DNA from: Escherichia phage vB_EcoS_HZ_ZJUN2
Reading direction: 5' to 3' (one strand)
Length of the DNA stretch: 64,000 bases
Sequence record: PP216084
The notes under the pieces were generated by a model. That model was given only the letters and a program-made list of their open reading frames with translations. It was not told the DNA's origin and searched no databases. Shown piece after piece: positions 50,027-60,505 of this stretch. Numbering within the stretch: position 1 is the first letter of the stretch; every line of letters begins with the position of its first letter. A program made the translations under genes and the position numbers.

Positions 50027-50527
50027 AGAACTGGATAACTGGTGCTTTTAACGTAAAAGCTTCCGAGGTTAGTTGCGCACTGCCTAAACCACGCGGTAGT
50101 TGGTTCCAGACTAACCAACCAGTCTGCTGAATAGTTTTATTACGATTTAACTATGTCCAGGCTAAAGAAGAACTTTAGAAGGTATTCTAGGTAGTGAAGT
50201 TTTTCCTCCATATCGGAGTAGTTTTTCAAGCTACCAACAAAGTGGGAAATGCTGACATGAGAGATGTCACTAATGGTGCACAATAGCACAGGTAATTCGC
50301 GATAACTCCTGTTGAGTAGCAGCAAAAGGCGGGAAGTCATGACCCCAAGCCTAACCGAGTCCTCAATATACCGCAGGACATAACCACTAAGTCACCCTGA
50401 CTTAAACTGGAAAATAATAGACGTTACTGTATTTTGTCTTGAAATACTTAATGAGTGAGACTTATGACTCTCCCGGTATCGTCTGTATTTTTAAGAGTTT
50501 TTACGAGAGTTCTTAAAAATACTTAAA

Positions 50528-50602
50528 CGGGGTGTAGTCTAAGGGAGAGGCAGGAGTCTTCTAAATTCCTTTATGCAGGTTCGAATCCTGTCACCTCGGC
50601 CA
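50528..50602 (+). tRNA. tRNA-Arg (anticodon TCT)
   Basis: Hand-folded cloverleaf: acceptor CGGGGTG/CACCTCG, anticodon loop CTTCTAA, T-loop TTCGAAT, encoded CCA. Confidence 0.65.
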
Positions 50603-50636
50603 ATTTTATTAACTGTAACTAAAACAAAGGAAATAT

Positions 50637-51584
50637 ATGTTTGCTACTAAAAACACTAAAGAACTGACTTATGAGCAAAAATTGATGCGTAATATCAAAC
50701 GTTGGGGTATTGGTGTTGCAGTTGGTTTGGTAGGTTTAGTTCTGGCCCTTAACTCCTATACTGTGGTTCAAGACGGTACTGTTAAAACCCAGACTTTCCT
50801 GGGTAAAGTTGACCCTAGCCCAGTATTACCAGGCTTTCATATTGTAAATCCTTTTGCTTCTTTCGATACTTTTAGTACTAAAGATATTGCTGTAAAATTA
50901 GATAAACTTCAGGTTCCTAGCCAGGATAAGTTTAAATCCACTGTTGACCTGACTGTTATGTTGCAGTTTGATGGTTCTAAGGCACCGATCAACCGTATTA
51001 ATGCAGGTACTCAGGATCAGGCGTTAGACAAATATGTAACTGAAAAATTACTGTCTACCATCCGTGAGTTTGGTAAGTCTGTACCTAAAGCACAAGATTT
51101 GTTTGATGCTAAAATTCAAGCACAATTACAAACTGCAATTCAACAGGAAGTTGAAGAGTATGCACGCCCTTATGGTTACACAGTTAAGCAAGTGTTCCTT
51201 CAGGATATCACATTACCACCGGTAATTATGGAACAGGTACAGAATACCAAAGTTCGTGAAGAACAAGTTAATGCTGCGAAAGCTGAATTGGCTCGTGTTG
51301 AACAAGAAGCACAGCAGAAGGTTAAACAAGCAGAAGCAGATCGTGAAGCTCGTAACAACCAAGCTATTGCAAACGAACGTGATGCAGATGCTAAACTGTA
51401 TGCAGCTAAGAAAGAAGCCGAAGCTAACGCCGCTCTGCAACGTACTATTACTCCTGAGATGATTCGCTGGAAACAACTAGAAGTTGAAATGACTCGTGCT
51501 CAGAAGTATCAAGGTGGTGTGCCGCAAACAGTAGTTGGCACTGGGTACGATGGCCGGATGATTATGGATATGCGTAACAAGTAA
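50637..51584 (+). CDS. SPFH/band-7 (prohibitin-like) membrane protein
   Basis: 315 aa; N-terminal TM helix WGIGVAVGLVGLVLAL; Ala/Glu/Gln-rich coiled coil. Confidence 0.6.
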   Translation: MFATKNTKELTYEQKLMRNIKRWGIGVAVGLVGLVLALNSYTVVQDGTVKTQTFLGKVDPSPVLPGFHIVNPFASFDTFSTKDIAVKLDKLQVPSQDKFKSTVDLTVMLQFDGSKAPINRINAGTQDQALDKYVTEKLLSTIREFGKSVPKAQDLFDAKIQAQLQTAIQQEVEEYARPYGYTVKQVFLQDITLPPVIMEQVQNTKVREEQVNAAKAELARVEQEAQQKVKQAEADREARNNQAIANERDADAKLYAAKKEAEANAALQRTITPEMIRWKQLEVEMTRAQKYQGGVPQTVVGTGYDGRMIMDMRNK

Positions 51585-51608
51585 TTCCCACACGTAATAT
51601 TCGAAGTA

Positions 51609-51648
51609 AGCCCTGTGTTCCCTGGAGAGCGCAGGGCTTTTCTGTTTT
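51609..51648 (+). terminator. intrinsic terminator
   Basis: Stem AAGCCCTG/CAGGGCTT followed by TTTTCTGTTTT. Confidence 0.7.
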
Positions 51649-51810
51649 AAGGTAGAGGATAAGTGTGTCTCTTTGGTCACTCAGCTATGACAAATACTTT
51701 ACACTATATCACATTGAAAATCAAGTGGGGATAACAATTTTGGGGTCTATCCACTTACCTGCTACCATTAAGCATCCTGTTATTTTCCTCTAAAAAGTTA
51801 AAAAATTCAA

Positions 51811-51839
51811 TTGCTTGAATGCTAAATTCTCTGTATAAT
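51811..51839 (+). promoter_or_regulatory. T5-type promoter
   Basis: TTGCTT - 17 bp - TATAAT followed by ATATTTATAAATTTGAGAGAGG. Confidence 0.65.
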
Positions 51840-51869
51840 ATATTTATAAATTTGAGAGAGGAATCTAGT

Positions 51870-52388
51870 ATGACTGTTGATGAACTAACAGAACATCTCT
51901 TATCTAGAGGGTTTGATACAGATAAGTATCATTGCTGGTTAAGCCAGGAAGGATGGCTAACAGTCCCGTTGTATGACTTCTCTGGGATGTTGAGAGGCTA
52001 TCAAACTTATAATCCTTCTGCTCCAAAAGGTCATGGTAAGTGTCCCTTTGAAGCTAAATATTTTACTTATTCTACTACCCAGTGTGTATGGGGATTAGAA
52101 ACTCTCAATGGAGATGAAAAAGTAGTATTGATTGCTGAATCTGTATTTAAGGCAGTTGCGTTACATAACGCTGGTTATCCAGCCCTGGCAATGTTGGGTT
52201 CTTCCCCCGGAAAAGCATTATTAAAGCAATTGAAATTATTACCTTTTAAATTGGTAGCTGTAGGAGATAATGATCCTGCGGGTGAAAAATTTGCTAGAAA
52301 ATTAAACGGCTTTGTTTCTCCTGTAGATGTAGATGAGATGTCTACCGAAAACTTGAAAAATTTTCTTGCTATGAAGCTAAATTTCTAA
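51870..52388 (+). CDS. small Toprim-domain protein
   Basis: Start at the ATG behind GAGAGAGGAATC; VVLIAESVFKAVAL…VAVGDNDPAGEK Toprim acidic motifs. Confidence 0.55.
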   Translation: MTVDELTEHLLSRGFDTDKYHCWLSQEGWLTVPLYDFSGMLRGYQTYNPSAPKGHGKCPFEAKYFTYSTTQCVWGLETLNGDEKVVLIAESVFKAVALHNAGYPALAMLGSSPGKALLKQLKLLPFKLVAVGDNDPAGEKFARKLNGFVSPVDVDEMSTENLKNFLAMKLNF

Positions 52389-52394
52389 TATAAT
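52366..52394 (+). promoter_or_regulatory. T5-type promoter overlapping the 3' end of the Toprim gene
   Basis: TTGCTA - 17 bp - TATAAT followed by ATATTTATAAATTCGGAAG. Confidence 0.6.
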
Positions 52395-52408
52395 ATATTT
52401 ATAAATTC

Positions 52409-52497
52409 GGAAGAATAGCATAACGGTATTGCAGCAGATTGCTAATCTGTCGGTTTGAAATATAGCCTTGTGGGTTCGATTCCCACTTCTTCCGCCA
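52409..52497 (+). tRNA. tRNA-Ser (anticodon GCT), long variable arm
   Basis: Acceptor GGAAGAA/TTCTTCC, anticodon loop TTGCTAA, 19-nt variable arm, T-loop TTCGATT, discriminator G, CCA. Confidence 0.7.
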
Positions 52498-52503
52498 AAT
52501 TCT

Positions 52504-52581
52504 GGTTCTCAAGCTCATATGGTATGAGCACCCAGCTCATAACTGGAAGGTACGTAGGTTCGAATCCTCGGGGAGCCACCA
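52504..52581 (+). tRNA. tRNA-Met-like (anticodon CAT)
   Basis: Acceptor GGTTCTC/GGGAGCC, D-stem GCTC/GAGC, anticodon loop CTCATAA, CCA; T-stem has only 3 clean pairs. Confidence 0.55.
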
Positions 52582-52604
52582 ACTTAATTAGAAAGTAGTA
52601 AACT

Positions 52605-53288
52605 ATGAGAACTGATATACTCGATAGAAAGGAAGAAATAACTCAGTGGATAGCTCAGGGAAAATCTAAAGCAGAGATAGCAAGAATGCTATCTTGTGCC
52701 TCGAATACTCTAGAAGCATATTTAGGAAAACTAGGGATAATAATTACTCCTACTAATAGGCAGCAGGATAATAAATATAAGTCTGCAACAGAGTATTTAT
52801 ATAATGGCAGTCCTATCTCTTCCTATAGACTAAAGAATAAAATTCTTAACGAGGGACTAAAACCACATAAATGTGAGGGTTGCGGACTAGAAAGCTGGTT
52901 AAATAAACCAATTCCCTTAGAACTCGAGCATAAAGATGGAGACCACTATAATAATGAGTGGGACAACTTAGCCCTCCTATGCCCAAATTGTCATGCACTA
53001 ACACCTACTCATGCAGGCAAAAATATTGGCAGGTATACAGAAAGGGTGGTAAATACATGTGCTATTTGTCATTGCGAAATTAGCCCAAAGGCAACGCACT
53101 GTAAATCATGTACCCCGAAAGAACTAACTATAAATCCAGATATTACTGCGGAGCAAATAGAGTATTGGGTATCTAAGTATTCCTGGGTTCGTGCCTCCAA
53201 AGAATTAGGATTATCTGACACGGGGTTAAGAAAAAGATATACGTCCTTAACAGGAAAAGATCCTAAAAGTATTAAGAAAAGTAGGTAG
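52605..53288 (+). CDS. HNH homing endonuclease with N-terminal HTH and shared C-terminal module
   Basis: CEGCG…ELEHKDGDHYNNEWDNLALLCPNCHA; C-terminal ELGLSDTGLRKRYTSL also present in 55476-56057. Confidence 0.7.
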   Translation: MRTDILDRKEEITQWIAQGKSKAEIARMLSCASNTLEAYLGKLGIIITPTNRQQDNKYKSATEYLYNGSPISSYRLKNKILNEGLKPHKCEGCGLESWLNKPIPLELEHKDGDHYNNEWDNLALLCPNCHALTPTHAGKNIGRYTERVVNTCAICHCEISPKATHCKSCTPKELTINPDITAEQIEYWVSKYSWVRASKELGLSDTGLRKRYTSLTGKDPKSIKKSR

Positions 53289-53317
53289 TATAATTAACAC
53301 CAAATTAAGGAAATAAG

Positions 53318-53488
53318 ATGTATAGACATCCACCTCCGCCAACACGTCGTTCTAGAGAAGTTATTCTCATGGAATTGACTAAAAACTTCAAGGCAACTCT
53401 TGAAGATAGAGATCTAGGCACGGATGAAGATATTGATTTTATTTGTAGACTATTAAAGATGAAACTGGAGAAACAACATGGCTAATCC
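53318..53488 (+). CDS. small hypothetical protein
   Basis: 56-aa ORF with AAGGAAATAAG RBS. Confidence 0.35.
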
Positions 53489-53684
53489 TGAAATTACCGC
53501 ACAACGTTTCATGCTTAAAGGCATGATTGCTGAGGCAGGTATAACTCAAGAGGTTGCAGATTTTCATAAGCAATTTCTTGACATTATAACTCTAGCTAAA
53601 GAGACTGGAGAAAAAGAACACGGTGCAGCAATTATGGCTATAACTCTTATTAGTCTAGACTTGGCAGAAGAATCTGGAGTTTAG
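53478..53684 (+). CDS. hypothetical protein
   Basis: 68-aa ORF. Confidence 0.45.
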   Translation: MANPEITAQRFMLKGMIAEAGITQEVADFHKQFLDIITLAKETGEKEHGAAIMAITLISLDLAEESGV

Positions 53685-53714
53685 CTCCTCCGAACAGAAT
53701 TTTTAAAAATGTAC

Positions 53715-53744
53715 TTGCCTTTTGCTTTAAATTTCTGGTATAAT
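53715..53744 (+). promoter_or_regulatory. T5-type promoter
   Basis: TTGCCT - 18 bp - TATAAT followed by AGTTATATAAATTGATGAAGG. Confidence 0.6.
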
Positions 53745-53774
53745 AGTTATATAAATTGATGAAGGAGTTAACGA

Positions 53775-54050
53775 ATGCAAAATCGTGTTATAGCAACTGG
53801 TATTGAAAGTGCAATCTGTAAATCCTGGGAAGGCTGGGAAGGTGAGATTGAATGGCTTTATTTCTACGATGTAGAACTTCTGCCGGAAATTAAAGCTAAA
53901 TGTGTTGAAGCTGGCATGGCTCCAGATGCAAAAGCTGATATTGATATTTCAATGTCTGAACTTAAAGGTCGTGTAATTACTGTTAGTGATGGGGGCGAAG
54001 AAGTTTTCGAACTTCCATTCTCCTTAACTGTCGCTCCTAAGTTCGACTAA
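53775..54050 (+). CDS. hypothetical protein
   Basis: 91-aa ORF with GAAGGAG RBS. Confidence 0.5.
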   Translation: MQNRVIATGIESAICKSWEGWEGEIEWLYFYDVELLPEIKAKCVEAGMAPDAKADIDISMSELKGRVITVSDGGEEVFELPFSLTVAPKFD

Positions 54051-54086
54051 CTAATACAGCACTGAGCAAGTTCTTTAAAATTTGAC

Positions 54087-54115
54087 TTGCTCAGTGCCTT
54101 AAAACTTGGTATAAT
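54087..54115 (+). promoter_or_regulatory. T5-type promoter whose -35 lies in the 3' arm of a 12-bp hairpin (54059-54097)
   Basis: TTGCTC - 17 bp - TATAAT; inverted repeat AGCACTGAGCAAG…CTTGCTCAGTGC. Confidence 0.55.
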
Positions 54116-54249
54116 AGTTATCTAATTTGGAAAGTTCTTTTTAAGGTAGTTCTTACTTTAGCAGAGTAAACTTTCGGCAGATGGCGGCAGCCACTTTACC
54201 GATATTCCATAGTCAGTGCCGCAAACACTGGCTACCTTAAAGAGAATTT

Positions 54250-54337
54250 GGGCGTTTATTCCGTAAGTGGTAGCGGAGGGGAATGTAAATCCCTGGTCAT
54301 TGCGACTCGAGTGGTTCGACTCCATTAACGCCCACCA
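54250..54337 (+). tRNA. tRNA-Tyr (anticodon GTA), long variable arm
   Basis: Acceptor GGGCGTT/AACGCCC, anticodon stem GGGGA/TCCCT, loop ATGTAAA, CCA. Confidence 0.65.
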
Positions 54338-54345
54338 AATTTAAT

Positions 54346-54420
54346 GCACCTATCGTCTAATGGTTAGGACATCAGGATTTCAATCTGAGAATCGGAGTTC
54401 AATTCTCCGTGGGTGTACCA
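54346..54420 (+). tRNA. tRNA-Glu (anticodon TTC)
   Basis: Acceptor GCACCTA/TGGGTGT, anticodon loop ATTTCAA, T-arm CGGAG-TTCAATT-CTCCG, CCA. Confidence 0.65.
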
Positions 54421-54428
54421 ATTTCTGC

Positions 54429-54505
54429 ATTCCTAGAGTGTTACTGGACAGCATGTCGGTCTCCAAAACCGTACGGTCTAGGTTCGAGTCCTAGTAGGTT
54501 TGCCA
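54429..54505 (+). tRNA. tRNA-Trp (anticodon CCA), two U-U mismatches in the acceptor stem
   Basis: Anticodon loop CTCCAAA, T-arm CTAGG-TTCGAGT-CCTAG, CCA; acceptor ATTCCTA/TAGGTTT pairs at 5 of 7 positions. Confidence 0.5.
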
Positions 54506-54511
54506 AAATTT

Positions 54512-54586
54512 GCACCTTTAGCTGAGATGGATTAGCGCTTGCCTGAAGAGCTTGAAAGGTTGGATCGTTACCAACGGGGTGCACCA
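54512..54586 (+). tRNA. tRNA-Phe (anticodon GAA)
   Basis: Acceptor GCACCTT/GGGGTGC, D-stem GCTG/TAGC, anticodon loop CTGAAGA, CCA; anticodon stem has two U-U pairs, T-loop ATCGTTA is atypical. Confidence 0.55.
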
Positions 54587-54603
54587 AATTGAAGGAGCTG
54601 CTG

Positions 54604-54876
54604 ATGCATCCTGAAAACTTCTTTATTTACTGCGCGGATAAGTCGCTGAAACGTAGAATTAACAAAGTCTATCATTATCGTGCTAGTCAACAGCCTTATG
54701 TATACGCTTTTGACGGTGATCACATTCCACTAGAACAATTATCTTGTGATTACATGATATTGAAGAACTTTGACGAGACGAAGATCTCAAGCGTTTATAA
54801 TCGACAGAATCCATTAACGTGGAAATATAAGAAGAAAAAGAAAGGCATCAAATTCTTAAAAAATATAGTTGCTTAG
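54604..54876 (+). CDS. hypothetical protein
   Basis: ATG at 54604 behind GAAGGAG, directly after tRNA-Phe. Confidence 0.45.
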   Translation: MHPENFFIYCADKSLKRRINKVYHYRASQQPYVYAFDGDHIPLEQLSCDYMILKNFDETKISSVYNRQNPLTWKYKKKKKGIKFLKNIVA

Positions 54877-54897
54877 TTTCCAAAAGTTCTGTATAAT
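54869..54897 (+). promoter_or_regulatory. T5-type promoter
   Basis: TTGCTT - 17 bp - TATAAT followed by AATTACATAAATTGAACTGGAG. Confidence 0.6.
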
Positions 54898-54945
54898 AAT
54901 TACATAAATTGAACTGGAGAAGCAACATGATAGAACAAGATAAAT

Positions 54946-55021
54946 CGACCGTTGGCTGAATGGCTTAGGCGAAGGATTGCAAATCCTTTTTATGTGAGTT
55001 CAAATCTCATGCGGTCGTCCA
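54946..55021 (+). tRNA. tRNA-Cys (anticodon GCA)
   Basis: Acceptor CGACCGT/GCGGTCG, anticodon stem AAGGA/TCCTT, loop TTGCAAA, T-arm GTGAG-TTCAAAT-CTCAT, CCA. Confidence 0.65.
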
Positions 55022-55023
55022 AT

Positions 55024-55170
55024 TTGCTGAAAGAATTGTTAAATCAATTCAGGCACGCGTAGGAACACTGTCTCCGTAATTGAAAGATGAGGCACGGTTT
55101 GGAGAGGTATGCCGCTACACGCTACGGTGCTAACTCCGTCTAGGTGAAAATCCTAGTCAGCAATGTAAAT
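55024..55170 (+). other. ~147-nt tRNA-like/structured RNA candidate closed by an acceptor-like helix
   Basis: 5' TTGCTGA pairs perfectly with 3' TCAGCAA; internal hairpins GAATTG…CAATTC and CTAGG-TGAAAAT-CCTAG; no ORF. Confidence 0.3.
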
Positions 55171-55173
55171 TTA

Positions 55174-55259
55174 GGGTCGTTGGCTGAACGGTTTAAGCGC
55201 CGGACTGTTAATCCGTATCCGCAAGGATAAAGTAGGTTCAACTCCTACACGGCCCGCCA
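55174..55259 (+). tRNA. tRNA-Asn (anticodon GTT) with an unusually long variable arm
   Basis: Acceptor GGGTCGT/ACGGCCC, anticodon arm CGGA-CTGTTAA-TCCG, 15-nt variable stem-loop ATCC-GCAA-GGAT, T-arm GTAGG-TTCAACT-CCTAC, discriminator G, CCA. Confidence 0.6.
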
Positions 55260-55286
55260 AATTCACTAACAACTGAGGAAATAGAT

Positions 55287-55472
55287 ATGACAACTCGTGC
55301 AATTGCTCGACTAGAAGCTGATCGTGATAATATGATTAATAATATTAAGGTTCGTGGTAATATTATTAAGGCTCTGAAAGCTGAACTTCTTGAGGAACTT
55401 CAAGGTCAAGTAGAGCGTCGTGAAGCTCTAAAAGAGGTTGAGGAAGCTATCGAAAAACTCAAGGCTGAATAA
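55287..55472 (+). CDS. hypothetical coiled-coil protein
   Basis: 61-aa ORF with GAGGAAATAG RBS. Confidence 0.5.
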   Translation: MTTRAIARLEADRDNMINNIKVRGNIIKALKAELLEELQGQVERREALKEVEEAIEKLKAE

Positions 55473-55475
55473 ATT

Positions 55476-56057
55476 ATGCACGGAATATCCTTACCCATTC
55501 CAGGGTTTGAGGAGTACTTAGTAAGTTTGGATGGGTTAGTATTTAGTATCAAATCAAACAAAATACTAACCCCAATAACCAGTAATTACGGATACTTATC
55601 TATACGTCTCCATAAAAATGGTCAACAGAGAAATACCGGTGTACATAGGATTTTAGCATGTGCATTTAAGAAATTACCAAGTCTAGACTCTGAACTAGAA
55701 GTTGACCATATTAACACAGACATTACTTATTGGGGTCTTAATAACTTACAAGTGCTCACAAAAGAGCAGCATCTAGAAAAGACTTTAAAAGATAAAGGAT
55801 TTAGTAAACTAAACCATGATAATTGTTGTAAGGATTGTGGTAAAGCTATTTCTTTAAAAGCTGAAAAATGTCAGGAGTGCTCTTCACATAAACCAAAAGA
55901 TATCTCTATAACTAAAGAAATAATCGAGGTTACAGTAAGAGAGCTAGGCTGGTCAGGTGCAGGGAGAAAGTTAAGTTATTCAGATAATGGGTTGCGTAAA
56001 AGATACACTTCTTTAGGAGGCAATCCTAAAGAACTTAAAAAGTTAAAGGTACTATAG
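55476..56057 (+). CDS. HNH homing endonuclease
   Basis: …YGYLSIRL…HRILACAF…EVDHINTDITYWGLNNLQVLTKEQH; C-terminal ELGWSGAGRKLSYSDNGLRKRYTSL module. Confidence 0.7.
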   Translation: MHGISLPIPGFEEYLVSLDGLVFSIKSNKILTPITSNYGYLSIRLHKNGQQRNTGVHRILACAFKKLPSLDSELEVDHINTDITYWGLNNLQVLTKEQHLEKTLKDKGFSKLNHDNCCKDCGKAISLKAEKCQECSSHKPKDISITKEIIEVTVRELGWSGAGRKLSYSDNGLRKRYTSLGGNPKELKKLKVL

Positions 56058-56122
56058 TCTAACGGTTAGGATACTCCCCTGTCACGGGAGAGGTAGGGTT
56101 TCGATTACCCTTAGTACCGCCA
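56048..56122 (+). tRNA. tRNA-Asp (anticodon GTC)
   Basis: Acceptor GGTACTA/TAGTACC, anticodon stem CTCCC/GGGAG, loop CTGTCAC, T-arm AGGGT-TTCGATT-ACCCT, CCA; 5' end overlaps the last codons of the HNH gene. Confidence 0.7.
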
Positions 56123-56139
56123 AATAAGGTAGGTTAGCT

Positions 56140-56298
56140 ATGGAACGTAGGGAGTTTACTCCAGAAGAGATAGAGCAGATAAAAGAATCTGCTATGAAAA
56201 ATGCTAGAATATCTCTGTCACTGGAAGGTATCATTATTAGTGATGTAAACTTTGAAAAAATCAAAGCCATAGCTGATGAACTGGAAAAAGTAATTTAA
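56140..56298 (+). CDS. small hypothetical protein
   Basis: 52-aa ORF with AAGGTAGG RBS, between tRNA-Asp and tRNA-Lys. Confidence 0.4.
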   Translation: MERREFTPEEIEQIKESAMKNARISLSLEGIIISDVNFEKIKAIADELEKVI

Positions 56299-56299
56299 T

Positions 56300-56375
56300 A
56301 CATCCATAGCTCAATGGTTAGAGCTACCGCCTCTTAAGCGGAGGGTTCTAGGTTCAAGTCCTAGTGGGTGTACCA
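56300..56375 (+). tRNA. tRNA-Lys (anticodon CTT)
   Basis: Acceptor ACATCCA/TGGGTGT, D-stem GCTC/GAGC, anticodon loop CTCTTAA, T-arm CTAGG-TTCAAGT-CCTAG, CCA. Confidence 0.6.
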
Positions 56376-56401
56376 AATTAAACTAGCACGAGAAATATGC
56401 T

Positions 56402-56749
56402 ATGATTAATGCTAAAGAAGAATTGTTACTTGCCCTAAAGAATACTAATTCTGAAGTTAAGTGTATTAAGATAGAATTCGGTTATTATGGGGATAAAGAA
56501 GTTTGGGTATTACCCGTAGGTTATACAGAAAAAGATATTGAAGATTTTCTAAATAATCTAGACTTTAAATATGATTCTGGTTATGGTGGGCAATTGCTTT
56601 ATGGTAACGTGTGGTTTACTGATGGAACTTGGTTAGAACGCGGTGAATACGACGGTTCTGAATGGTGGGAATATAAGGCTACGCCAGCAATCCCAGAAGA
56701 ATGCCGAACAATTAATGGTGAAGTAGATCATACATTACTACTAAATTAA
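56402..56749 (+). CDS. hypothetical protein
   Basis: 115-aa ORF between tRNA-Lys and tRNA-Pro. Confidence 0.5.
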   Translation: MINAKEELLLALKNTNSEVKCIKIEFGYYGDKEVWVLPVGYTEKDIEDFLNNLDFKYDSGYGGQLLYGNVWFTDGTWLERGEYDGSEWWEYKATPAIPEECRTINGEVDHTLLLN

Positions 56750-56759
56750 TAAAAATTAA

Positions 56760-56836
56760 CAGTGCGTAGCTCAGCTTGGTAGAGCGTCTGCTTTGGGAGC
56801 AGAATGTCGCAGGTTCGAGTCCTGCCGCACTGACCA
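56760..56836 (+). tRNA. tRNA-Pro (anticodon TGG)
   Basis: Acceptor CAGTGCG/CGCACTG, D-stem GCTC/GAGC, anticodon stem TCTGC/GCAGA, loop TTTGGGA, CCA. Confidence 0.7.
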
Positions 56837-56936
56837 AACAATTGCGGGTGGGAGGCATAGAGTTCTTCTTAGTCTCATAAGCTAAGTAAGTCCAGGGCAG
56901 TACTGGAACCCGCTACCAATTTCAAGAAAAACTCAT

Positions 56937-56965
56937 TTGCTTAATGCTTAATTTCTTGTTATAAT
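56937..56965 (+). promoter_or_regulatory. T5-type promoter driving an ORF-free ~0.3-kb leader and the Ala/Leu tRNAs
   Basis: TTGCTT - 17 bp - TATAAT followed by ATTTATATAAATTGATGCG. Confidence 0.65.
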
Positions 56966-56971
56966 ATTTAT

Positions 56972-57297
56972 ATAAATTGATGCGAAAATAGCTGCCTAGA
57001 TACCAGGTGTATGACGTCTACACTAGCAGAGCTACCGAAAAAGAGATCCTCAGGATAAACGTCGTAGCAAAATTAGTCTGGTATCCATCAATTTAGTTCA
57101 CTAAGGTATTAGCTCGACCTAGGACTGGCTGCCAAAAAGCACGATCCCTACGACTTGGGAGAAGTTCTAGATTAGTCCACTAGATTCAGCGGCAACTGAA
57201 TAGTGTATTGGGTTTGCGAGATGACGCGGTTCCTTCCGCTCGAAGCGAAGGTGCTGTAGTTACGCCGAGCTAATAGCCTTAGTAAACTAAAGAATTT
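56972..57297 (+). ncRNA. candidate non-coding RNA / structured precursor leader
   Basis: ~325 nt between promoter and tRNA-Ala with no plus-strand ORF longer than 15 codons; local hairpins such as CCTTCCGC-TCGAA-GCGAAGG. Confidence 0.3.
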
Positions 57298-57371
57298 GGG
57301 GATATAGTTTAATGGTAGAACATCTGCTTTGCACGCAGAAGACGAGGGTTCAACTCCCTCTTTCTCCACCA
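57298..57371 (+). tRNA. tRNA-Ala (anticodon TGC) with G3-U70
   Basis: Acceptor GGGGATA/TTTCTCC with the G3-U70 wobble typical of alanine tRNAs; anticodon stem TCTGC/GCAGA, loop TTTGCAC, CCA. Confidence 0.65.
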
Positions 57372-57376
57372 AATTC

Positions 57377-57461
57377 GGGGCTATGCTGGAACTGGTAGAC
57401 AATACGGCCTTAGATTCCGTAGCTTAAATGCGTGGGAGTTCGAGTCTCCCTAGCCCCACCA
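57377..57461 (+). tRNA. tRNA-Leu (anticodon TAG), long variable arm
   Basis: Acceptor GGGGCTA/TAGCCCC, D-loop AACTGGTAGA, anticodon loop CTTAGAT, 13-nt variable arm, discriminator A, CCA. Confidence 0.65.
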
Positions 57462-57585
57462 AATTTGATGGTCAGAGTAAATTAAACCTACTATCTCGGT
57501 TGAGCTGTTTTAATGGGTTCGAATCCCAGCGAGGCGTAACTGCCTGGTGTGATAGAGGCATCATTCCACTAATATTGGAAAACTA

Positions 57586-57816
57586 ATGAAACGAGAATTA
57601 AAAAAATCTTATATAATTAAGATAAATAAGCTAAGAAGTAGGGCAAAAGGATGGCCACTTCGGATATTAATTGCGGATAACCATATTAGATACCATGCGG
57701 AACAACGTCATTATAAACAGTGGGAGTCATACTGCCGCTCAAAAGCAGGTCGTTTAGATGGATCTTATGAGTTTCTATTTGGTAAGAAGCCTACTAGAGT
57801 AGCTTTAGGTAATTAA
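57586..57816 (+). CDS. hypothetical basic protein
   Basis: 76-aa ORF. Confidence 0.45.
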   Translation: MKRELKKSYIIKINKLRSRAKGWPLRILIADNHIRYHAEQRHYKQWESYCRSKAGRLDGSYEFLFGKKPTRVALGN

Positions 57817-57821
57817 TACTT

Positions 57822-57912
57822 GGAAGAGCAAATCGAATTGGCGACGAAAACCGCTTGGAAAGTGGCTGACTGGTAAAACGGCTTGAGAGTTCAAATCTCT
57901 CCTCTTCCGCCA
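57822..57912 (+). tRNA. tRNA-Ser (anticodon GGA, tentative), long variable arm
   Basis: Perfect acceptor GGAAGAG/CTCTTCC, T-arm GAGAG-TTCAAAT-CTCTC, discriminator G, CCA; anticodon loop TTGGAAA closed by 4 pairs. Confidence 0.55.
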
Positions 57913-57919
57913 AACAAAT

Positions 57920-58009
57920 AGAAGGTAGGGCGTAGTGGTACGCAACTAGTCTTGAAAACTAGCCCGCTGTAGTGATACGGTGATGGTTCGACTCCATTAC
58001 CTTCTGCCA
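57920..58009 (+). tRNA. tRNA-Ser (anticodon TGA), long variable arm
   Basis: Acceptor AGAAGGT/ACCTTCT, anticodon stem CTAGT/ACTAG, loop CTTGAAA, discriminator G, CCA. Confidence 0.65.
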
Positions 58010-58025
58010 ACTTATAAGGTAATAT

Positions 58026-58208
58026 ATGTCTTTAACGAAAACTGTGAAGGTTACACTAACTGATGGCACAGAGTTTAGTGCACAAGTAACCTTACTAGAA
58101 GACGGTTATTGGGAAGTATATCTTCCACACGTTAATTCTACTGGTAGAGGATGGACTCAACAACAGGCTATTGTTGATGCTTTAAATGAGGCTTCTGCTG
58201 GTTTATAA
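58026..58208 (+). CDS. hypothetical protein
   Basis: 60-aa ORF. Confidence 0.45.
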   Translation: MSLTKTVKVTLTDGTEFSAQVTLLEDGYWEVYLPHVNSTGRGWTQQQAIVDALNEASAGL

Positions 58209-58215
58209 AAATTCT

Positions 58216-58346
58216 TGGAATATGCCGGAATTGGTAGACGGGACTGCCGAATAGGTTTACTAGGAACATCCACTCCTAGAAATATACCTTAAAAGCGGTT
58301 GAGTTAAATGGTCTAACTCATGAAGGTTCAAGTCCTTCTATTCCTT
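58216..58346 (+). other. ~130-nt tRNA-like element (class-II-like with large insertion, no encoded CCA)
   Basis: 5' TGGAATA pairs at 6 of 7 positions with 3' TATTCCT; D-loop-like ATTGGTAGAC; variable-arm-like hairpin TGAGTT…AACTCA; canonical T-arm GAAGG-TTCAAGT-CCTTC. Confidence 0.3.
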
Positions 58347-58575
58347 GATACATCAATGGCTCAAAGTGTAACGGTGCTATTTGATGCTCTTGGCAAGACT
58401 TCCCCGACATGCGTTCGGGAGTAAGCTGCTAAGACTAGAATAGAAGAGTTTCTGAGAGCCGCCACAATTGAAAATTCGTACTCGTCTTGAGCTGCGTGCA
58501 ATAGGAGATAACTTGATTAGTATTCTAGAACATGCTAATTGAGGAAGGTTTCGCTAACCCTGCGAGTTTTCAATT

Positions 58576-58652
58576 GTGGCTATATCATAATTGGTTAATG
58601 ATCCTGATTGTGAATCAGGCCTATGTGGATTCGAATTCCACTAGCCACCCCA
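58576..58652 (+). tRNA. tRNA-His (anticodon GTG)
   Basis: Acceptor GTGGCTA/TAGCCAC, D-stem TCAT/ATGA, anticodon stem CCTGA/TCAGG, loop TTGTGAA, discriminator C, CCA. Confidence 0.65.
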
Positions 58653-58677
58653 AATTAACTTAAATAGGAAATAAAAT

Positions 58678-58872
58678 ATGGCTGATTTCTGCAAACAATG
58701 CTCCATTGATATGTGGGGTAAAGATACTGGTGACTTAGCTGGTCTGATTACAGAAGCCGAAGTCAAAGAAGGTTATGGTGCAGTTGTGGTTTGCGAAGGA
58801 TGCGGAGTCATTCGAGTAGATCATGAAGGCAAACGTTTGGAAGAATCTGAGCCAACAACAATTTTTCCGTAG
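58678..58872 (+). CDS. hypothetical protein
   Basis: 64-aa ORF with AGGAAATAAA RBS. Confidence 0.5.
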   Translation: MADFCKQCSIDMWGKDTGDLAGLITEAEVKEGYGAVVVCEGCGVIRVDHEGKRLEESEPTTIFP

Positions 58873-58885
58873 AGTAAAGAATTAT

Positions 58886-58961
58886 TGGGATGTAGATCAA
58901 TTGGCAGATCGTCGGCCTCTGACTCCGAAGGTTCCACGTTCGATCCGTGGCATCCCAGCCA
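58886..58961 (+). tRNA. tRNA-Gln (anticodon CTG)
   Basis: Acceptor TGGGATG/CATCCCA with U1-A72, D-stem GATC/GATC, anticodon loop CTCTGAC, CCA. Confidence 0.6.
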
Positions 58962-58967
58962 AATTAT

Positions 58968-59043
58968 TGGAGAGTAGTGTAACGGTTAGCACAACGGCCT
59001 TTGACTCCGTTAATGGTAGGTTCGATTCCTCCTTCTCCAGCCA
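58968..59043 (+). tRNA. tRNA-Gln (anticodon TTG)
   Basis: Acceptor TGGAGAG/TTCTCCA with U1-A72, anticodon loop CTTTGAC, CCA. Confidence 0.6.
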
Positions 59044-59050
59044 AATTAAT

Positions 59051-59125
59051 GCGTGATTAGTTCAGTGGCTAGAATAACTGGCTTCCAACCAGTAGACACG
59101 AGTTCGACTCTCGTATCCCGCACCA
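59051..59125 (+). tRNA. tRNA-Gly (anticodon TCC)
   Basis: Anticodon stem ACTGG/CCAGT, loop CTTCCAA, T-arm ACGAG-TTCGACT-CTCGT, CCA; one U-C mismatch in the acceptor stem. Confidence 0.6.
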
Positions 59126-59139
59126 AATAAGGAATCTCT

Positions 59140-59361
59140 ATGCACGTTTTTGAGTTTCGTAATAAAAGTACCAATAAACGAGTTATTGTTATTGGGGAAA
59201 CATATCGAGCATATGAACAAACTGACGGCTCTGTTATCTTGAATGATGAGAAAGGGGGTTTTAGCTTTTATCCAGAAGAAACATATGAAGAGTTTCGTAC
59301 CAAGTTTCTTTTACCAGACTGGCTAGCAGTAGCCGAGCAACGAGAATCCGAAGATGGCTGA
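59140..59361 (+). CDS. hypothetical protein
   Basis: 73-aa ORF with AAGGAATC RBS. Confidence 0.5.
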   Translation: MHVFEFRNKSTNKRVIVIGETYRAYEQTDGSVILNDEKGGFSFYPEETYEEFRTKFLLPDWLAVAEQRESEDG

Positions 59362-59419
59362 TAACCTAAAATTAAGGGTTGACAAACAAAAGAAATCCCA
59401 TTGAAATAATGGGATTATC

Positions 59420-59494
59420 GCTCCTAAAGCATTGTTGGCGATGCAGTTGCCTTGTAAGCATCTGAGCTGGGTTCGATTCCTAGTGGGAGCACCA
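59420..59494 (+). tRNA. tRNA-Thr (anticodon TGT)
   Basis: Acceptor GCTCCTA/TGGGAGC, D-stem GCAT/ATGC, anticodon loop CTTGTAA, T-arm CTGGG-TTCGATT-CCTAG, CCA. Confidence 0.6.
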
Positions 59495-59509
59495 AATTTA
59501 AAAATTCAT

Positions 59510-59538
59510 TTGCTTTCTCTCTTATTTATTGTTATAAT
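59510..59538 (+). promoter_or_regulatory. T5-type promoter
   Basis: TTGCTT - 17 bp - TATAAT followed by ATTTACATAAATTAATGAGAGGG. Confidence 0.65.
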
Positions 59539-59568
59539 ATTTACATAAATTAATGAGAGGGAAACCAA

Positions 59569-59859
59569 ATGAAACGTTATCTTTCTGTTATGTTCCAAAC
59601 CGGCGGCCAAAGATACACCTATGAATTTCCACCTTCCTGGAAAATCAGGGAAGGTGATCAAGTAGTTGTGTTAACACCGCGTGAAGAATATAAAGTAGTG
59701 ACGGTTAAACAAGTATTTCCAAAAGATCATGAACCAGCTATAGGCATCCGATATAAGATGATTCATGGCGTGGTTCGTCAAGTACCACGAACTGAGGTAG
59801 AAGTAGATAATACTGGAGAAACTAAATTCCATTATACTTCTCACTTAGACAGTGTGTGA
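59569..59859 (+). CDS. hypothetical protein
   Basis: 96-aa ORF with GAGGGAAACC RBS. Confidence 0.5.
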   Translation: MKRYLSVMFQTGGQRYTYEFPPSWKIREGDQVVVLTPREEYKVVTVKQVFPKDHEPAIGIRYKMIHGVVRQVPRTEVEVDNTGETKFHYTSHLDSV

Positions 59860-59874
59860 TGTAAATATTTTAAT

Positions 59875-59951
59875 GCTTCGGTAGCTTAGCGATCTAAAGC
59901 ACTCGGCTGATAACCGAGAGATCGGGGGTTTAAATCCCTCCCGAAGTACCA
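59875..59951 (+). tRNA. tRNA-Ile (anticodon GAT)
   Basis: Acceptor GCTTCGG/CCGAAGT, D-stem GCTT/AAGC, anticodon stem CTCGG/CCGAG, loop CTGATAA, CCA. Confidence 0.65.
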
Positions 59952-60047
59952 AATCTAGGAATTAAGACTATGCGTCCAGGAAAGTTTAAAAAAGCTAGTT
60001 GGTCCAAAGAGTACAAAGAATACTTACTTAGCCTAGTAAAACGTAAT

Positions 60048-60123
60048 AGTTAGTTGGCAGAGTGGTTATGCACCTCCTTCATACGGAGCGACTACAGTGG
60101 TTCAAATCCACTACTAACTACCA
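60048..60123 (+). tRNA. tRNA-Met-like (anticodon CAT), second copy
   Basis: Perfect acceptor AGTTAGT/ACTAACT, anticodon loop TTCATAC, T-arm AGTGG-TTCAAAT-CCACT, CCA. Confidence 0.6.
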
Positions 60124-60136
60124 AACAGGAGATCTA

Positions 60137-60505
60137 ATGAAAGCGTATCAAAATCTTAAATCTGGCGTAATTAATATTGTTCATAATAACCAGATTATTC
60201 AACTGTACTCTAAAGATGGTGAACTTAAACAAAAAGTTCTAGTTGAAGATCTAGAGAGTATCACACCTCATTTTGACCCCGAATCCTTTCGTGAAGTCAA
60301 AGTGGAAGTCGCCCCTCAAATTGAAGGTGGTCAACACCTAAATGTCAATGTGTTAAGTCGTGATCAGCTTTTGGATGCGCAGAAACATCCTGAAAAATAC
60401 CCTCAATTAACTATCCGTGTTTCAGGGTATGCTGTGCGTTTTAACGCACTGACGCGTGAACAGCAGAACGACGTTATTAGTCGTACATTTACTCAGGTGA
60501 TGTAA
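60137..60505 (+). CDS. GrcA/YfiD-like autonomous glycyl-radical cofactor protein
   Basis: ATG at 60137 behind CAGGAG; C-terminus …[10 protein letters not shown]…[40 protein letters not shown] carries the glycyl-radical signature [10 protein letters not shown] found at the C-terminus of pyruvate formate-lyase and GrcA. Confidence 0.7.

Follow-up and report, generated by a model that had tools for sequence, protein, structure and literature searches.

The window, i.e. the whole 64,000-nucleotide stretch of Escherichia phage vB_EcoS_HZ_ZJUN2 DNA that was analysed, harbours 23 tRNA genes at 50528-60123, interleaved with two HNH homing endonuclease ORFs and about 16 small ORFs, and all features described here lie on the plus strand. 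This arrangement had been proposed from hand-folded cloverleaves, and automated prediction by ARAGORN and Rfam recovered the same set, boundaries and isotypes, with 50528 and 60123 as first and last coordinates. At its default setting, ARAGORN gives 21 tRNAs in the whole 64-kb window, all on the plus strand and within 49954-60123, including 20 inside 50528-60123. Rfam at gathering score yields 22 tRNA matches with E-values from 7e-14 to 6e-3, of which 21 fall inside 50528-60123; relative to the ARAGORN default it gains a CAT tRNA (52504-52578) and tRNA-Phe (54512-54583), and it misses tRNA-Tyr and tRNA-Ser(GGA). The union of both accounts for 22 of the 23 tRNAs, while tRNA-Ser(GGA) requires slightly relaxed ARAGORN, which at -ps90 adds 52504-52581 (CAT), 54512-54586 (Phe) and 57822-57912 (Ser-GGA). 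As predicted, the CCA 3' end is encoded in every gene (23/23). Non-Watson-Crick stem pairs, originally seen in several genes, occur in 16 of the 23 ARAGORN cloverleaves (at least one pair neither Watson-Crick nor G.U), e.g. in Trp, Phe, Ala, Gly and Lys. The set spans 19 amino acids, with Val alone uncovered.

Unless stated otherwise, each of these genes was called by both ARAGORN and Rfam. The first, tRNA-Arg(TCT) at 50528..50602, reads AGA/AGG and equals its T5 counterpart (75/75). It is followed by the class II tRNA-Ser(GCT) at 52409..52497 (89/89 vs T5) and a CAT tRNA at 52504..52581 (78/78 vs T5; Rfam 38.2 bits, ARAGORN -ps90). The class II tRNA-Tyr(GTA) at 54250..54337, called by ARAGORN, falls under the Rfam tRNA gathering score and gives a 32-bit match to tRNA-Sec; this allele is shared with phage HildyBeyeler (87/88) and is unlike that of T5 (70/88). 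Next come tRNA-Glu(TTC) at 54346..54420, tRNA-Trp(CCA) at 54429..54505 (Rfam 36.3 bits; 77/77 vs HildyBeyeler) and tRNA-Phe(GAA) at 54512..54586 (Rfam 32.6 bits; ARAGORN -ps90). Two U.U pairs each are found in the acceptor stem of tRNA-Trp (U2xU71, U3xU70) and in the anticodon stem of tRNA-Phe (U28xU42, U29xU41). After tRNA-Cys(GCA) at 54946..55021 (76/76 vs T5) lies the 86-nt tRNA-Asn(GTT) at 55174..55259 (Rfam 54.7 bits), an allele different from that of T5, with a class-II-like extra arm (AUCC-GCAA-GGAU) that covaries across phage families (611 phage records).

The tRNA-Asp(GTC) at 56048..56122 has only the anticodon arm in common with the T5/HildyBeyeler allele. The tRNA-Lys(CTT) at 56300..56375 (Rfam 64.8 bits; 76/76 vs HildyBeyeler) reads AAG only, whereas T5 carries Lys(TTT) instead, at another place. 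The tRNA-Pro(TGG) at 56760..56836, free of mismatches (Rfam 69.1 bits), differs from the T5 allele and is lacking in HildyBeyeler. Further downstream are tRNA-Ala(TGC) at 57298..57371 (Rfam 72.3 bits) and the class II tRNA-Leu(TAG) at 57377..57461, which reads CUA/CUG and equals that of T5 (85/85). The class II tRNA-Ser(GGA) at 57822..57912, detected by ARAGORN -ps90 only, is the weakest call of the 23; it matches an annotated HildyBeyeler tRNA at 90/91 positions and T5 tRNA-Ser2 at 68/91. Owing to their weak scores and mismatched stems, the Trp, Phe and Ser-GGA tRNAs may function poorly. The remaining genes are the class II tRNA-Ser(TGA) at 57920..58009 (Rfam 34.1 bits; 87/90 vs T5), tRNA-His(GTG) at 58576..58652 (77/77 vs T5), tRNA-Gln(CTG) at 58886..58961, tRNA-Gln(TTG) at 58968..59043, tRNA-Gly(TCC) at 59051..59125, which reads GGA/GGG, tRNA-Thr(TGT) at 59420..59494 (72/75 vs T5), tRNA-Ile(GAT) at 59875..59951 and the elongator-type tRNA-Met(CAT) at 60048..60123 (76/76 vs T5 tRNA-Met).

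Both CAT tRNAs had been assigned to Met, and the genes themselves stand; the Met identity is retained for the last gene and rejected for the one at 52504-52581. The latter is identical (78/78) to the gene annotated as tRNA-Ile2(CAU) in the T5 and BF23 records, which makes it, most likely, an Ile tRNA that reads AUA upon lysidine modification. Neither CAT tRNA is of initiator type, and the island has no initiator tRNA. Additionally, a Val tRNA had been suspected among the tRNA-like elements, a suggestion that gained no support, as none was found at ARAGORN -ps80 or Rfam E<=5. Three elements were considered. The first, at 49954..50027 (ARAGORN 'Ser(act)'; Rfam tRNA 39 bits), has acceptor, D and T arms and occurs in 461 phage records with four compensatory pairs among six phages; it was rejected as a decoding or Val tRNA for its lack of CCA and its degenerate anticodon arm, which has a 6-nt loop and is skipped by the Rfam covariance model. 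The second, at 58278-58346 (an ARAGORN 'tta' pseudo-call), is part of the T5 'RNA1' homologue. The third, a 76-nt aberrant fMet-like element aligned to T5 tRNA-fMet at 56843..56918, was dismissed for its CAU anticodon. It occupies the T5 tRNA-fMet position and keeps the T5 acceptor stem, anticodon-arm design and CCA end; GG is missing from the D loop, and the T loop (GGCAGUA) sits on a replaced 5-bp stem. It is seen by ARAGORN at -ps80 only, gives no Rfam match at E<=10, and its allele recurs in five further T5-like loci, in one of them with one substitution. This phage lacks the T5 block that holds Lys(UUU) and Val, and no more than this element is left.

The tRNAs are accompanied by protein-coding genes, most with T5 homologues. 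An SPFH/Band 7 membrane protein gene (T5.080 / BF23 trn1.1) lies at 50637..51584 (Pfam Band_7 E 4.8e-17; PHROG 200) and a Toprim/primase-like small protein gene (T5.076 / trn2.1) at 51819..52388 (Pfam Toprim_2; PHROG 849 E 4.5e-62). Small ORFs include two overlapping ones of 55 and 68 aa at 53318..53684 (T5.074/T5.073), 91 aa at 53775..54050 (T5.072; PHROG 4551 E 6e-44), 54589..54876 (T5.071 / trn2.6; PHROG 5876 E 4.7e-63), 52 aa at 56140..56298, 115 aa at 56402..56749 (T5.067 / trn2.10; PHROG 3972 E 3.9e-42), 60 aa at 58026..58208 (T5.063), 64 aa at 58678..58872 (T5.062), 73 aa at 59140..59361 (T5.060) and 96 aa at 59569..59859 (T5.058; PHROG 4760 E 2.9e-52). A 76-aa ORF at 57586..57816 takes the interval in which T5 has hegC (F-TflI) instead. 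A glycyl-radical (GrcA-like) small protein gene (T5.056) at 60134..60505 (Pfam Gly_radical E 3.3e-18) precedes the last gene of the unit, of 104 aa, at 60587..60901 (T5.055).

The proposed promoter-headed grouping was borne out by homology, as nine early promoters of 75 bp annotated in T5 have counterparts here (54/58 to 75/75 identity). They share an upstream A tract, TTGCT(T/A), TATAAT and a downstream ATAAATT; a generic sigma-70 scan alone gave no enrichment over shuffles (24 found vs 34.9 expected). The P16-17 homologue (49683..49757; 54/58; TTGCTA-17-TATAAT) heads RNAX, tRNA-Arg and the SPFH gene. Downstream of it follow those of P15a (51791..51865; 75/75), P15b (52346..52420; 75/75; TTGCTA-17-TATAAT), P15c (53696..53770; 73/75), P14a (54069..54133; 64/65), which heads the Tyr-Glu-Trp-Phe group, P14b (54849..54923; 73/75), P13b (56918..56982; 60/65) and P11 (59490..59564; 71/75), which overlaps the tRNA-Thr 3' end. 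A strong terminator-like hairpin at 51608..51639, with a 13-pair stem and then a T run, closes the first transcription unit. It has the same sequence in T5, upstream of the annotated ter1 and nick, and holds GCGC, resembling the motif that the T5 record quotes for the single-strand nick. The tRNA transcription unit is closed at 60913..60945 by a rho-independent terminator homologous to T5/BF23 ter2 (33/33 vs T5); together, the promoter homologues and ter2 are 92-100% identical to T5.

Furthermore, stable RNAs annotated in T5 have homologues here. RNAX (T5, BF23 annotation; 49899..50527; 598/712 vs T5 rnaX) contains the first tRNA-like element, and its 3' end abuts the tRNA-Arg 5' end exactly. 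RNA2H lies at 57107..57278 (170/172). The tRNA-like RNA1 (58214-58357; 137/144; Rfam tRNA 23.9 bits, under gathering score), RNAI (58358-58464; 99/107) and RNAIII (58469-58574; 105/106) form a block at 58214..58574 that adjoins tRNA-His at its end. By extension from the T5 literature, host sigma-70 RNA polymerase would initiate at this series of strong, near-identical early promoters, producing long, mixed transcripts of tRNAs, small mRNAs and stable RNAs in two units, from P16-17 to the hairpin at 51608 and from P15a to ter2 at 60913. Host RNases would free the 23 tRNAs, with RNase P acting at the 5' ends and CCA pre-encoded at the 3' ends, and aminoacylation would presumably follow as in T5.

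Codon usage of 47 window ORFs was compared with that of 42 MG1655 genes. The codons AGA (9.2x), AGG (5.4x), CTA (4.7x), ATA (4.4x), ACA (2.6x) and GGA (2.45x) are commoner in the AT-rich phage (39% G+C), and a cognate phage tRNA is present for each. Over all codons with a cognate phage tRNA, the enrichment in this sample is not significant (Mann-Whitney p=0.21). The His-GTG, Asp-GTC, Ile-GAT and Gln-CTG tRNAs serve codons rarer in phage than in host, and the phage is enriched in GTA and TTA although it has neither a Val(UAC) nor a Leu(UAA) tRNA. Going by published T5 experiments, the island likely functions as a phage-owned tRNA supply, giving the AT-rich phage its own decoding capacity, chiefly for the host-rare codons AGA/AGG, CUA, AUA, GGA and ACA.

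A second likely role, by analogy with T5 experiments, is anti-defence, in which phage tRNAs would keep translation going once defence nucleases destroy host tRNAs. In T5, PARIS/AriB is neutralised by tRNA-Lys(UUU), Thr(UGU) and Asn(GUU) (PMC11464382; PMC12409363), and retron-Eco7 is overcome by the T5/SP15 tRNA-Tyr from its strong promoter (PMC11555353). The key PARIS suppressor of T5, tRNA-Lys(UUU), is absent from this phage, and its tRNA-Asn keeps an E. coli-like UAAUCC motif; therefore, the anti-PARIS role is probably inapplicable here. The tRNA-Thr reads UAAGCA at positions 36-41, with G39 vs the U39 required by the AriB motif (read against PMC12409363).

The two endonuclease genes differ in their relationship to T5. 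The first, at 52605..53288, is an orthologue of T5 hegA (F-TflIV; 92% aa; PHROG 14736 E 8e-78), whereas HildyBeyeler has three small ORFs and a tRNA-Leu(TAA) at this site and no endonuclease. The second, at 55476..56057 (NUMOD4 + HNH_3; Pfam, PHROG), is a paralogue of T5 F-TflII (43% aa) and F-TflI (38% aa) and extends 10 nt into the start of tRNA-Asp. HildyBeyeler and T5 lack it at the same site, a presence/absence polymorphism at a fixed position. It belongs to a module whose first gene is a 61-aa ORF at 55287..55472 and whose limits coincide exactly with the ends of tRNA-Asn (55262) and tRNA-Asp (about 56127). Salmonella phages S113 and S147 carry this module at 99.7% identity. The linked tRNA-Asp allele is at least 95% identical in 68 phage records, and the protein in 55, in all of which the module is contiguous and the gene stands beside this allele; the linkage is an association. 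As argued from the T5 literature, both genes may be selfish inserts that cut endonuclease-free relatives during co-infection and copy themselves along with the adjoining tRNA allele, so that tRNA alleles are shuffled. Such homing would explain why the island is a mosaic of alleles drawn from various T5-like lineages. Similar accounts have been published for T5-like phages (PMC10644984; PMC12639943; PMC2330249, citing Akulenko 2004).

As a whole, the 49.7-60.9 kb portion of the window very probably represents the tRNA gene region, expressed early, of a siphovirus of T5-like type (Demerecviridae, Tequintavirus-like), a degree of confidence that applies to the explanation given above in its entirety. 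A total of 832 T5-like records match the tRNA region. Phage HildyBeyeler (Bas33) shows 96.9% identity across 79% of the region, and the parts outside this match are 94-99.7% identical to other T5-like phages. Every block is already known from published relatives, and the locus is of a known type. The region is a classical, already annotated one of T5/BF23 type, a name that the original prediction did not give it. The T5 record notes amber-suppressor activity upon anticodon replacement for Ser3, Ile2, Leu1 and His. Gene order is syntenic with the annotated tRNA regions of T5, BF23 and HildyBeyeler; nine early promoters, two terminators and five 'stable RNAs' of T5 map onto the region, as do an orthologue of F-TflIV and another HNH endonuclease, and seven tRNAs (Arg, Ser-GCT, CAT/Ile2, Cys, Leu-TAG, His and Met) are base-for-base the same as those of T5.

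Judged by homology and synteny, the tRNA island of this phage (50528-60123, plus strand) is an orthologue of the classical T5-type tRNA region, whose descriptions go back to the 1980s and for which hundreds of genomes carry annotation. An 11-kb stretch spanning the island matches 832 phage records, nearly all of them from T5-like phages of Escherichia and Salmonella. The best match is HildyBeyeler (Bas33, Tequintavirus, MZ501074), with 96.9% identity over 79% of the region, and for the replication region of the window no record exceeds 95.5% identity. By sequence similarity, the phage clearly falls within the T5-like group. With T5 used as the reference for coordinate mapping, the region resolves into blocks collinear with the T5/BF23 tRNA region at 88-97% identity, flanked by T5.081-083 upstream and by T5.056/055 downstream, and the same locus is shown in the annotated records of HildyBeyeler, BF23, and T5. 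The original prediction of a tRNA island interspersed with small ORFs and homing endonucleases was therefore a correct reading. Each block of the island is closely matched in some public record, and the island matters mainly as an ordinary, correct annotation of the classical tRNA region of a T5-like phage. A small residual chance of novelty lies in its non-canonical tRNA-shaped RNAs.

The tRNA genes were called by two programs. ARAGORN at default settings, run on the whole 64-kb window, called 21 tRNAs between 49954 and 60123, all on the plus strand and 20 of them inside 50528-60123. Rfam at its gathering score returned 22 tRNA matches in the window (E 7e-14 to 6e-3), with 21 inside the same limits. 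The latter search adds a CAT tRNA at 52504 and a Phe tRNA at 54512 to the default ARAGORN set and misses Tyr and Ser-GGA; ARAGORN at -ps90 adds CAT at 52504-52581, Phe at 54512-54586, and Ser-GGA at 57822-57912. The union of the callers amounts to 23 tRNA genes in 50528-60123, which recovers the isotypes and the outer coordinates of the 23 plus-strand tRNAs previously folded by hand. Outside the tRNA region, no tRNA is predicted across the rest of the 64-kb window. Direct reading of the 3' ends finds an encoded CCA in 23/23 tRNAs, exactly as had been claimed, and the non-Watson-Crick stem pairs reported for several of them are seen in 16/23, all of which have one or more stem pairs outside the Watson-Crick and G.U types. 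When the Rfam family RF00005 was applied at its gathering threshold of 29 bits, 21 of the 23 passed, scoring 32.6-72.3 bits. The two that fail, Tyr and Ser-GGA, are both class II and are both called by ARAGORN; compared with the annotated tRNAs of HildyBeyeler, they are identical at 87/88 and 90/91 positions, respectively.

These imperfections could be read as signs that a large share of the island consists of decaying or selfish cargo, carried by homing endonucleases and useless to the phage, with several of the tRNAs being pseudogenes or artefacts. Such an explanation would fit the stem mismatches in 16/23 tRNAs, the low or sub-threshold Rfam scores of Trp, Phe, Ser-TGA, Ile2, Tyr, and Ser-GGA, and the occurrence in the island of an aberrant fMet-like element and two tRNA-like elements. 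Likewise, a pseudo-tRNA-Gln is annotated in T5 itself, and T5 deletion mutants can lose as many as 16 tRNAs and remain viable under laboratory conditions (PMC11464382). However, the full cloverleaf together with the encoded CCA is kept by every one of the 23 tRNAs, the low-scoring ones recur in the same or nearly the same form in distinct phages, and compensatory changes are present even in the tRNA-like elements. Moreover, the T5 record notes amber-suppressor activity for Ser3, Ile2, Leu1, and His, whose window versions are identical. Decay or selfish carriage is thus regarded as a very unlikely account of the island.

The arrangement of the tRNAs in promoter-headed groups, which formed part of the original prediction, is held up by homology to nine annotated T5 promoters. 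Mapping of these promoters replaced a generic sigma-70 consensus scan, which gave 24 matches against 34.9 in shuffles, without enrichment, and is uninformative in AT-rich DNA; because that scan does not rise above the shuffles, the promoter-headed groups rest on T5 homology. The nine homologues of T5 early promoters (75-bp type) map on the region with 54/58 to 75/75 identity, and their activity is predicted from this homology. On the plus strand, they include P16-17 (49692-49749), P15a (51791-51865) and P15b (52346-52420), both 75/75 against T5, P15c (53696-53770), P14a (54069-54133), P14b (54849-54923), P13b (56918-56982), and P11 (59490-59564). Their architecture is that of T5, with an upstream A tract, TTGCT(T/A), a spacer, TATAAT, and a downstream ATAAATT. 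A homologue of terminator ter2 lies at 60913-60945 on the plus strand (33/33 against T5), and the first unit is closed by a strong hairpin and T run at 51608-51639. This terminator-like hairpin, located 3' of the SPFH gene, includes GAGCGCAG, which resembles the GCGC motif that the T5 record gives for the single-strand nick of T5; the same sequence occurs in T5 too. Five of the eight T5 stable RNAs have homologues with 87-99% identity in the aligned parts, namely RNAX (49899-50527, 598/712 with gaps), RNA2H (57107-57278), and RNA1, RNAI, and RNAIII (58214-58574), all on the plus strand, while T5 feature mapping gave no window homologue of RNA2, RNA3, or RNAIV. As established for T5, the host polymerase would transcribe the island from strong early promoters in this phage as well, and host RNases would process the transcripts. 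Addition of CCA would be unneeded, since the observed tRNA ends already encode it.

A possible use of such a tRNA set is to match codon usage. On this explanation, an AT-rich phage in a host that is not AT-rich merely tops up the tRNAs for codons that it uses more than the host, and no defence evasion is involved, a position published for T5-like phages (Yang et al. 2021, in the form relayed by PMC10644984). Codon usage was compared between 47 long window ORFs and 42 annotated MG1655 genes. The codons most enriched in the phage over E. coli are AGA (9.2x), AGG (5.4x), CTA (4.7x), ATA (4.4x), ACA (2.6x), and GGA (2.45x), and there is a phage tRNA for each, which favours codon matching. However, when all Watson-Crick-cognate codons are compared with the others, the enrichment is not significant (p=0.21), so that the expected pattern stands for the rarest host codons and fails for cognate codons as a whole. 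The phage also uses CAC, GAC, ATC, and CAG less than the host, yet has tRNAs for each of them, and a near-complete set covering 19 amino acids exceeds the needs of a top-up. In addition, single T5 tRNAs decide the outcome against PARIS and retron-Eco7 (PMC11464382, PMC11555353, PMC12409363). Because the global test is not significant and several tRNAs serve codons rarer in the phage, codon matching accounts for part of the tRNA set and not for the whole, and an explanation by codon usage only is rather unlikely.

The identities of individual tRNAs call for some revision. Two tRNAs with the anticodon CAT are present, as had been proposed, but the Met identity assigned to the one at 52504-52581 probably does not hold, given that it is identical at 78/78 positions to the gene annotated as tRNA-Ile2(CAU) in the T5 and BF23 records. 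The island has no other decoder for the enriched codon ATA, and alignment to E. coli ileX and metT does not separate Ile2 from Met. By its sequence, this gene is probably a tRNA-Ile2, not a tRNA-Met, with a CAU whose C34 would be converted to lysidine by TilS and with predicted charging by IleRS. No canonical initiator tRNA is found in the island. The reported lack of a Val tRNA was borne out with ARAGORN relaxed as far as -ps80. The accompanying suggestion that one might hide in the tRNA-like elements was ruled out, as neither relaxed ARAGORN nor Rfam at E<=5-10 gives any Val and no Val anticodon sits in a credible loop among these elements. The T5 genes for Val and Lys(UUU) have no homologue in the window, where the T5 block with both is absent.

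Between and around the tRNAs lie several recognizable protein genes, all on the plus strand. Pfam and PHROG searches identify an SPFH/Band 7 protein (50637-51584) and a Toprim/primase-like protein (51819-52388), and roughly a dozen small ORFs fall into conserved PHROG families with no assigned function. A small GrcA/YfiD-like glycyl-radical gene (60134-60505, Pfam Gly_radical E 3e-18) adjoins the last tRNA and is kept in T5 as T5.056. The homing endonucleases originally placed in the island are indeed there, in the form of two HNH genes with homology to the F-Tfl group. The first, hegA (52605-53288), has 92% protein identity to T5 F-TflIV; the second (55476-56057), with a NUMOD4 motif, is 43% identical to F-TflII and 38% to F-TflI. 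In the latter ORF, NUMOD4 scores above the Pfam cut-off and the HNH_3/HNH matches below it, and the endonuclease ORFs match HNH PHROG families at E 6e-22 to 8e-78. Directly upstream of the island, the ORF at 47843-48550 is the counterpart of a HildyBeyeler 'intein-containing hypothetical protein' and has an HNH-like stretch (HRIAWLLHYGEEPPHMIDHIN...N) in its N-terminal part; it may be another mobile insertion.

Differences among T5-like genomes have been traced mainly to homing endonucleases (PMC10644984). In a block comparison of the window with HildyBeyeler and T5, the collinear stretches are broken by replacements. Both HNH genes are missing at the same sites in HildyBeyeler and the second is also missing in T5, which constitutes a presence/absence polymorphism. 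The second gene forms part of a module comprising ORF61, the HNH gene, and tRNA-Asp (55262-56127), whose limits coincide with the 3' ends of tRNA-Asn and tRNA-Asp. This module is shared at 99.7% identity with the distant Salmonella phages S113 and S147 and with some 50 further phages. The second HNH protein is at least 95% identical in 55 records, and the linked Asp allele reaches at least 95% in 68 records. Only the anticodon arm is common to this allele and the Asp allele of T5 and HildyBeyeler. The tight linkage of an HNH gene to one Asp allele, as an association, matches the prediction of homing with co-conversion, and would make a clean case of the endonuclease-driven mosaicism that is known in general terms for T5-like phages.

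A second role of the island would be to replace host tRNAs destroyed by defence nucleases, as shown experimentally in T5. There, tRNA-Lys(UUU), Thr(UGU), and Asn(GUU) counter PARIS/AriB (PMC11464382, PMC12409363), and tRNA-Tyr transcribed from a strong promoter counters retron-Eco7 (PMC11555353). It can accordingly be proposed that the island serves mainly for counter-defence, supplying nuclease-resistant or over-expressed substitutes for host tRNAs cut by abortive-infection nucleases, with the turnover of alleles reflecting an arms race. Besides the T5 data, the divergence of co-located isoacceptors speaks for this proposal. A per-tRNA comparison finds seven tRNAs identical to T5 (Arg, Ser-GCT, CAT/Ile2, Cys, Leu-TAG, His, and Met), very divergent alleles at the same position for Tyr (70/88), Ala (54/74), and Asp (44/75), and no co-located T5 match for Asn, Trp, Pro, Gln, and Gly; in the Asp alleles, the anticodon arm is identical and all other arms differ. 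Furthermore, AriB recognizes the motif U36AAUC|A41, and a U39->A change abolishes its cleavage of E. coli tRNA-Lys (PMC12409363); the window Thr reads UAAGCA, with G39, and is thus altered at that very position of the motif. On the other hand, the window Asn reads UAAUCC, as in E. coli Asn, and so retains the host-type motif, and Lys(UUU) is absent. Recombination driven by endonucleases could equally yield allele diversity without any selection by defence. A mainly counter-defensive island is therefore a tentative reading, plausible but short of probable.

The window has Lys(CUU) at 56300-56375, reading UAAGCG, and the PARIS-protective Lys(UUU) of T5 is missing (56837-56917), an arrangement found in Bas33 alike. 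E. coli is not known to have a Lys isoacceptor other than Lys-UUU, and Lys(CUU) is not among the E. coli isoacceptors given in the cited literature. Because Bas33, the closest relative and likewise without Lys(UUU), is naturally PARIS-sensitive (PMC12409363), we infer by analogy that this phage may be PARIS-sensitive. In practical terms, the set reads as Lys(CUU) instead of Lys(UUU), no Val, no canonical fMet, an Asn with an E. coli-like AriB motif, and an escape-like Thr, and the phage tRNA-Tyr belongs to the type by which T5 and SP15 are protected against retron-Eco7.

Some RNAs of the region are tRNA-shaped without being ordinary tRNAs. The fMet-like element (56843-56918, 76 nt) stands at the position of T5 fMet, directly 3' of tRNA-Pro, and has kept the acceptor stem of the T5 gene along with the CUCAUAA loop and a CCA end. 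It was compared with the features of an initiator, namely a G18G19 D loop, a T54-Psi55-C56 T loop, a 1-72 mismatch, and three G-C pairs in the anticodon stem. The 1-72 U.U mismatch is present; GG is missing from the D loop, a T loop of sequence GGCAGUA sits on a different but perfectly paired 5-bp stem, and a single G-C pair occurs in the anticodon stem, so that the element was rejected as an initiator tRNA-fMet. It has no Rfam match at E<=10. The same allele is found in HildyBeyeler, where it is unannotated, and at four more T5-like loci, of which one differs by one substitution; it may be either a relic or a tRNA with an altered elbow. Two IMG/VR phage contigs unrelated to T5 carry fMet-like tRNAs with the same UGCGGG acceptor start and unusual T loops (UGCAAUU); this points to a broader group of initiator-like phage tRNAs whose elbows are non-standard. 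Upstream of the island, the tRNA-like element within the RNAX homologue (49954-50027) was ruled out as a real tRNA-Ser(ACU) or Val(AAC), as the Rfam model skips the anticodon arm, the loop has 6 nt, and CCA is lacking. It occurs in 461 records of T5-like and Klebsiella phages, annotated variously as tRNA-Ser, tRNA-Sec, tRNA-OTHER, a CDS, or not at all, shows 4 compensatory pairs (6 sequences), and might act as a processing signal for RNAX.

Asn tRNAs of bacteria normally belong to class I. The tRNA-Asn(GTT) of the window (55174-55259, 86 nt) has a class-II-like extra arm of 4 bp with a GCAA cap, and the same design is present in 611 phage records of several families, among them T4-like phages of Klebsiella and Erwinia and a Phapecoctavirus. 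In a 5-sequence alignment, 10/24 pairs show compensatory changes, including 3/4 pairs of the extra arm, and the anticodon stem-loop is almost invariant. A text search of the literature found no specific description of a class-II-like phage tRNA-Asn, which is no proof that it is undescribed. Pattern scans of IMG/VR for homologues of the tRNA-like elements gave 34 and 4 loci, and covariation is thus based on 5-6 sequences each. On one reading, the RNAX and fMet-like elements and the extra-armed tRNA-Asn are incapable of normal decoding, keep their structures through compensatory change, and are not relics but functional decoys or structurally altered escape variants directed against defence nucleases or host tRNA-processing or modification enzymes; this reading is improbable. 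With few sequences behind them, these tRNA-shaped RNAs and the unusual tRNA-Asn would seem mildly interesting.

Among the closest known systems is the tRNA region of T5 (AY543070, about 28.0-41.6 kb) and BF23 (AJ604530), with the same flanking genes, gene order, and strand. Promoters P16-17, P15a, P15b, P15c, P14a, P14b, P13b, and P11, terminator ter2, the stable RNAs RNAX, RNA2H, RNA1, RNAI, and RNAIII, hegA (F-TflIV), and the SPFH, Toprim, and glycyl-radical genes are likewise shared with the window. However, the window is without RNA2, RNA3, RNAIV, P13a, hegC, hegD, Lys(UUU), and Val(UAC). A divergent three-gene cluster, T5.077-079 with promoter P12, separates two tRNA units of T5/BF23 and is missing at 51640-51790 of the window as well as in HildyBeyeler. 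Conversely, the window encodes Lys(CUU), not found in T5, as well as the extra HNH-Asp module, and carries the aberrant fMet-like element in place of the canonical T5 fMet. Its alleles of Tyr, Glu, Trp, Asn, Asp, Pro, Ala, Ser-GGA, both Gln, and Gly are unlike those of T5.

HildyBeyeler resembles the window in the blocks Tyr-Glu-Trp-Phe, Cys-Asn, Lys(CUU), Gln-Gln-Gly, and Ile-Met, in the same aberrant fMet-like element, and in the lack of both Val and Lys(UUU). It differs in having a tRNA-Leu(TAA) cassette at the site occupied by hegA in the window, T5, and BF23, in lacking the ORF61-HNH-Asp module and tRNA-Pro, and in its alleles of Asp, Ala, Leu-TAG, Ser-TGA, and Thr. Salmonella phage Tennessee 'Salten' (OZ075147) is likewise a Tequintavirus and has 23 tRNAs. 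It matches 80% of the region at 96.4% identity; about 20% lacks megablast-level coverage against the window, so that the two genomes are distinct. It carries two HNH homing endonucleases not present in HildyBeyeler, one of which it shares with Salmonella phage S147 (PMC12639943), and the window is alike. A more distant parallel is T4 SegB, a free-standing homing endonuclease embedded in a tRNA cluster, which causes the tRNA region to be inherited preferentially in mixed infections. The T4 cluster has 8 tRNAs and a GIY-YIG endonuclease and belongs to an unrelated phage family, and homing, which we infer for the window, has been demonstrated in T4 (PMC2330249).
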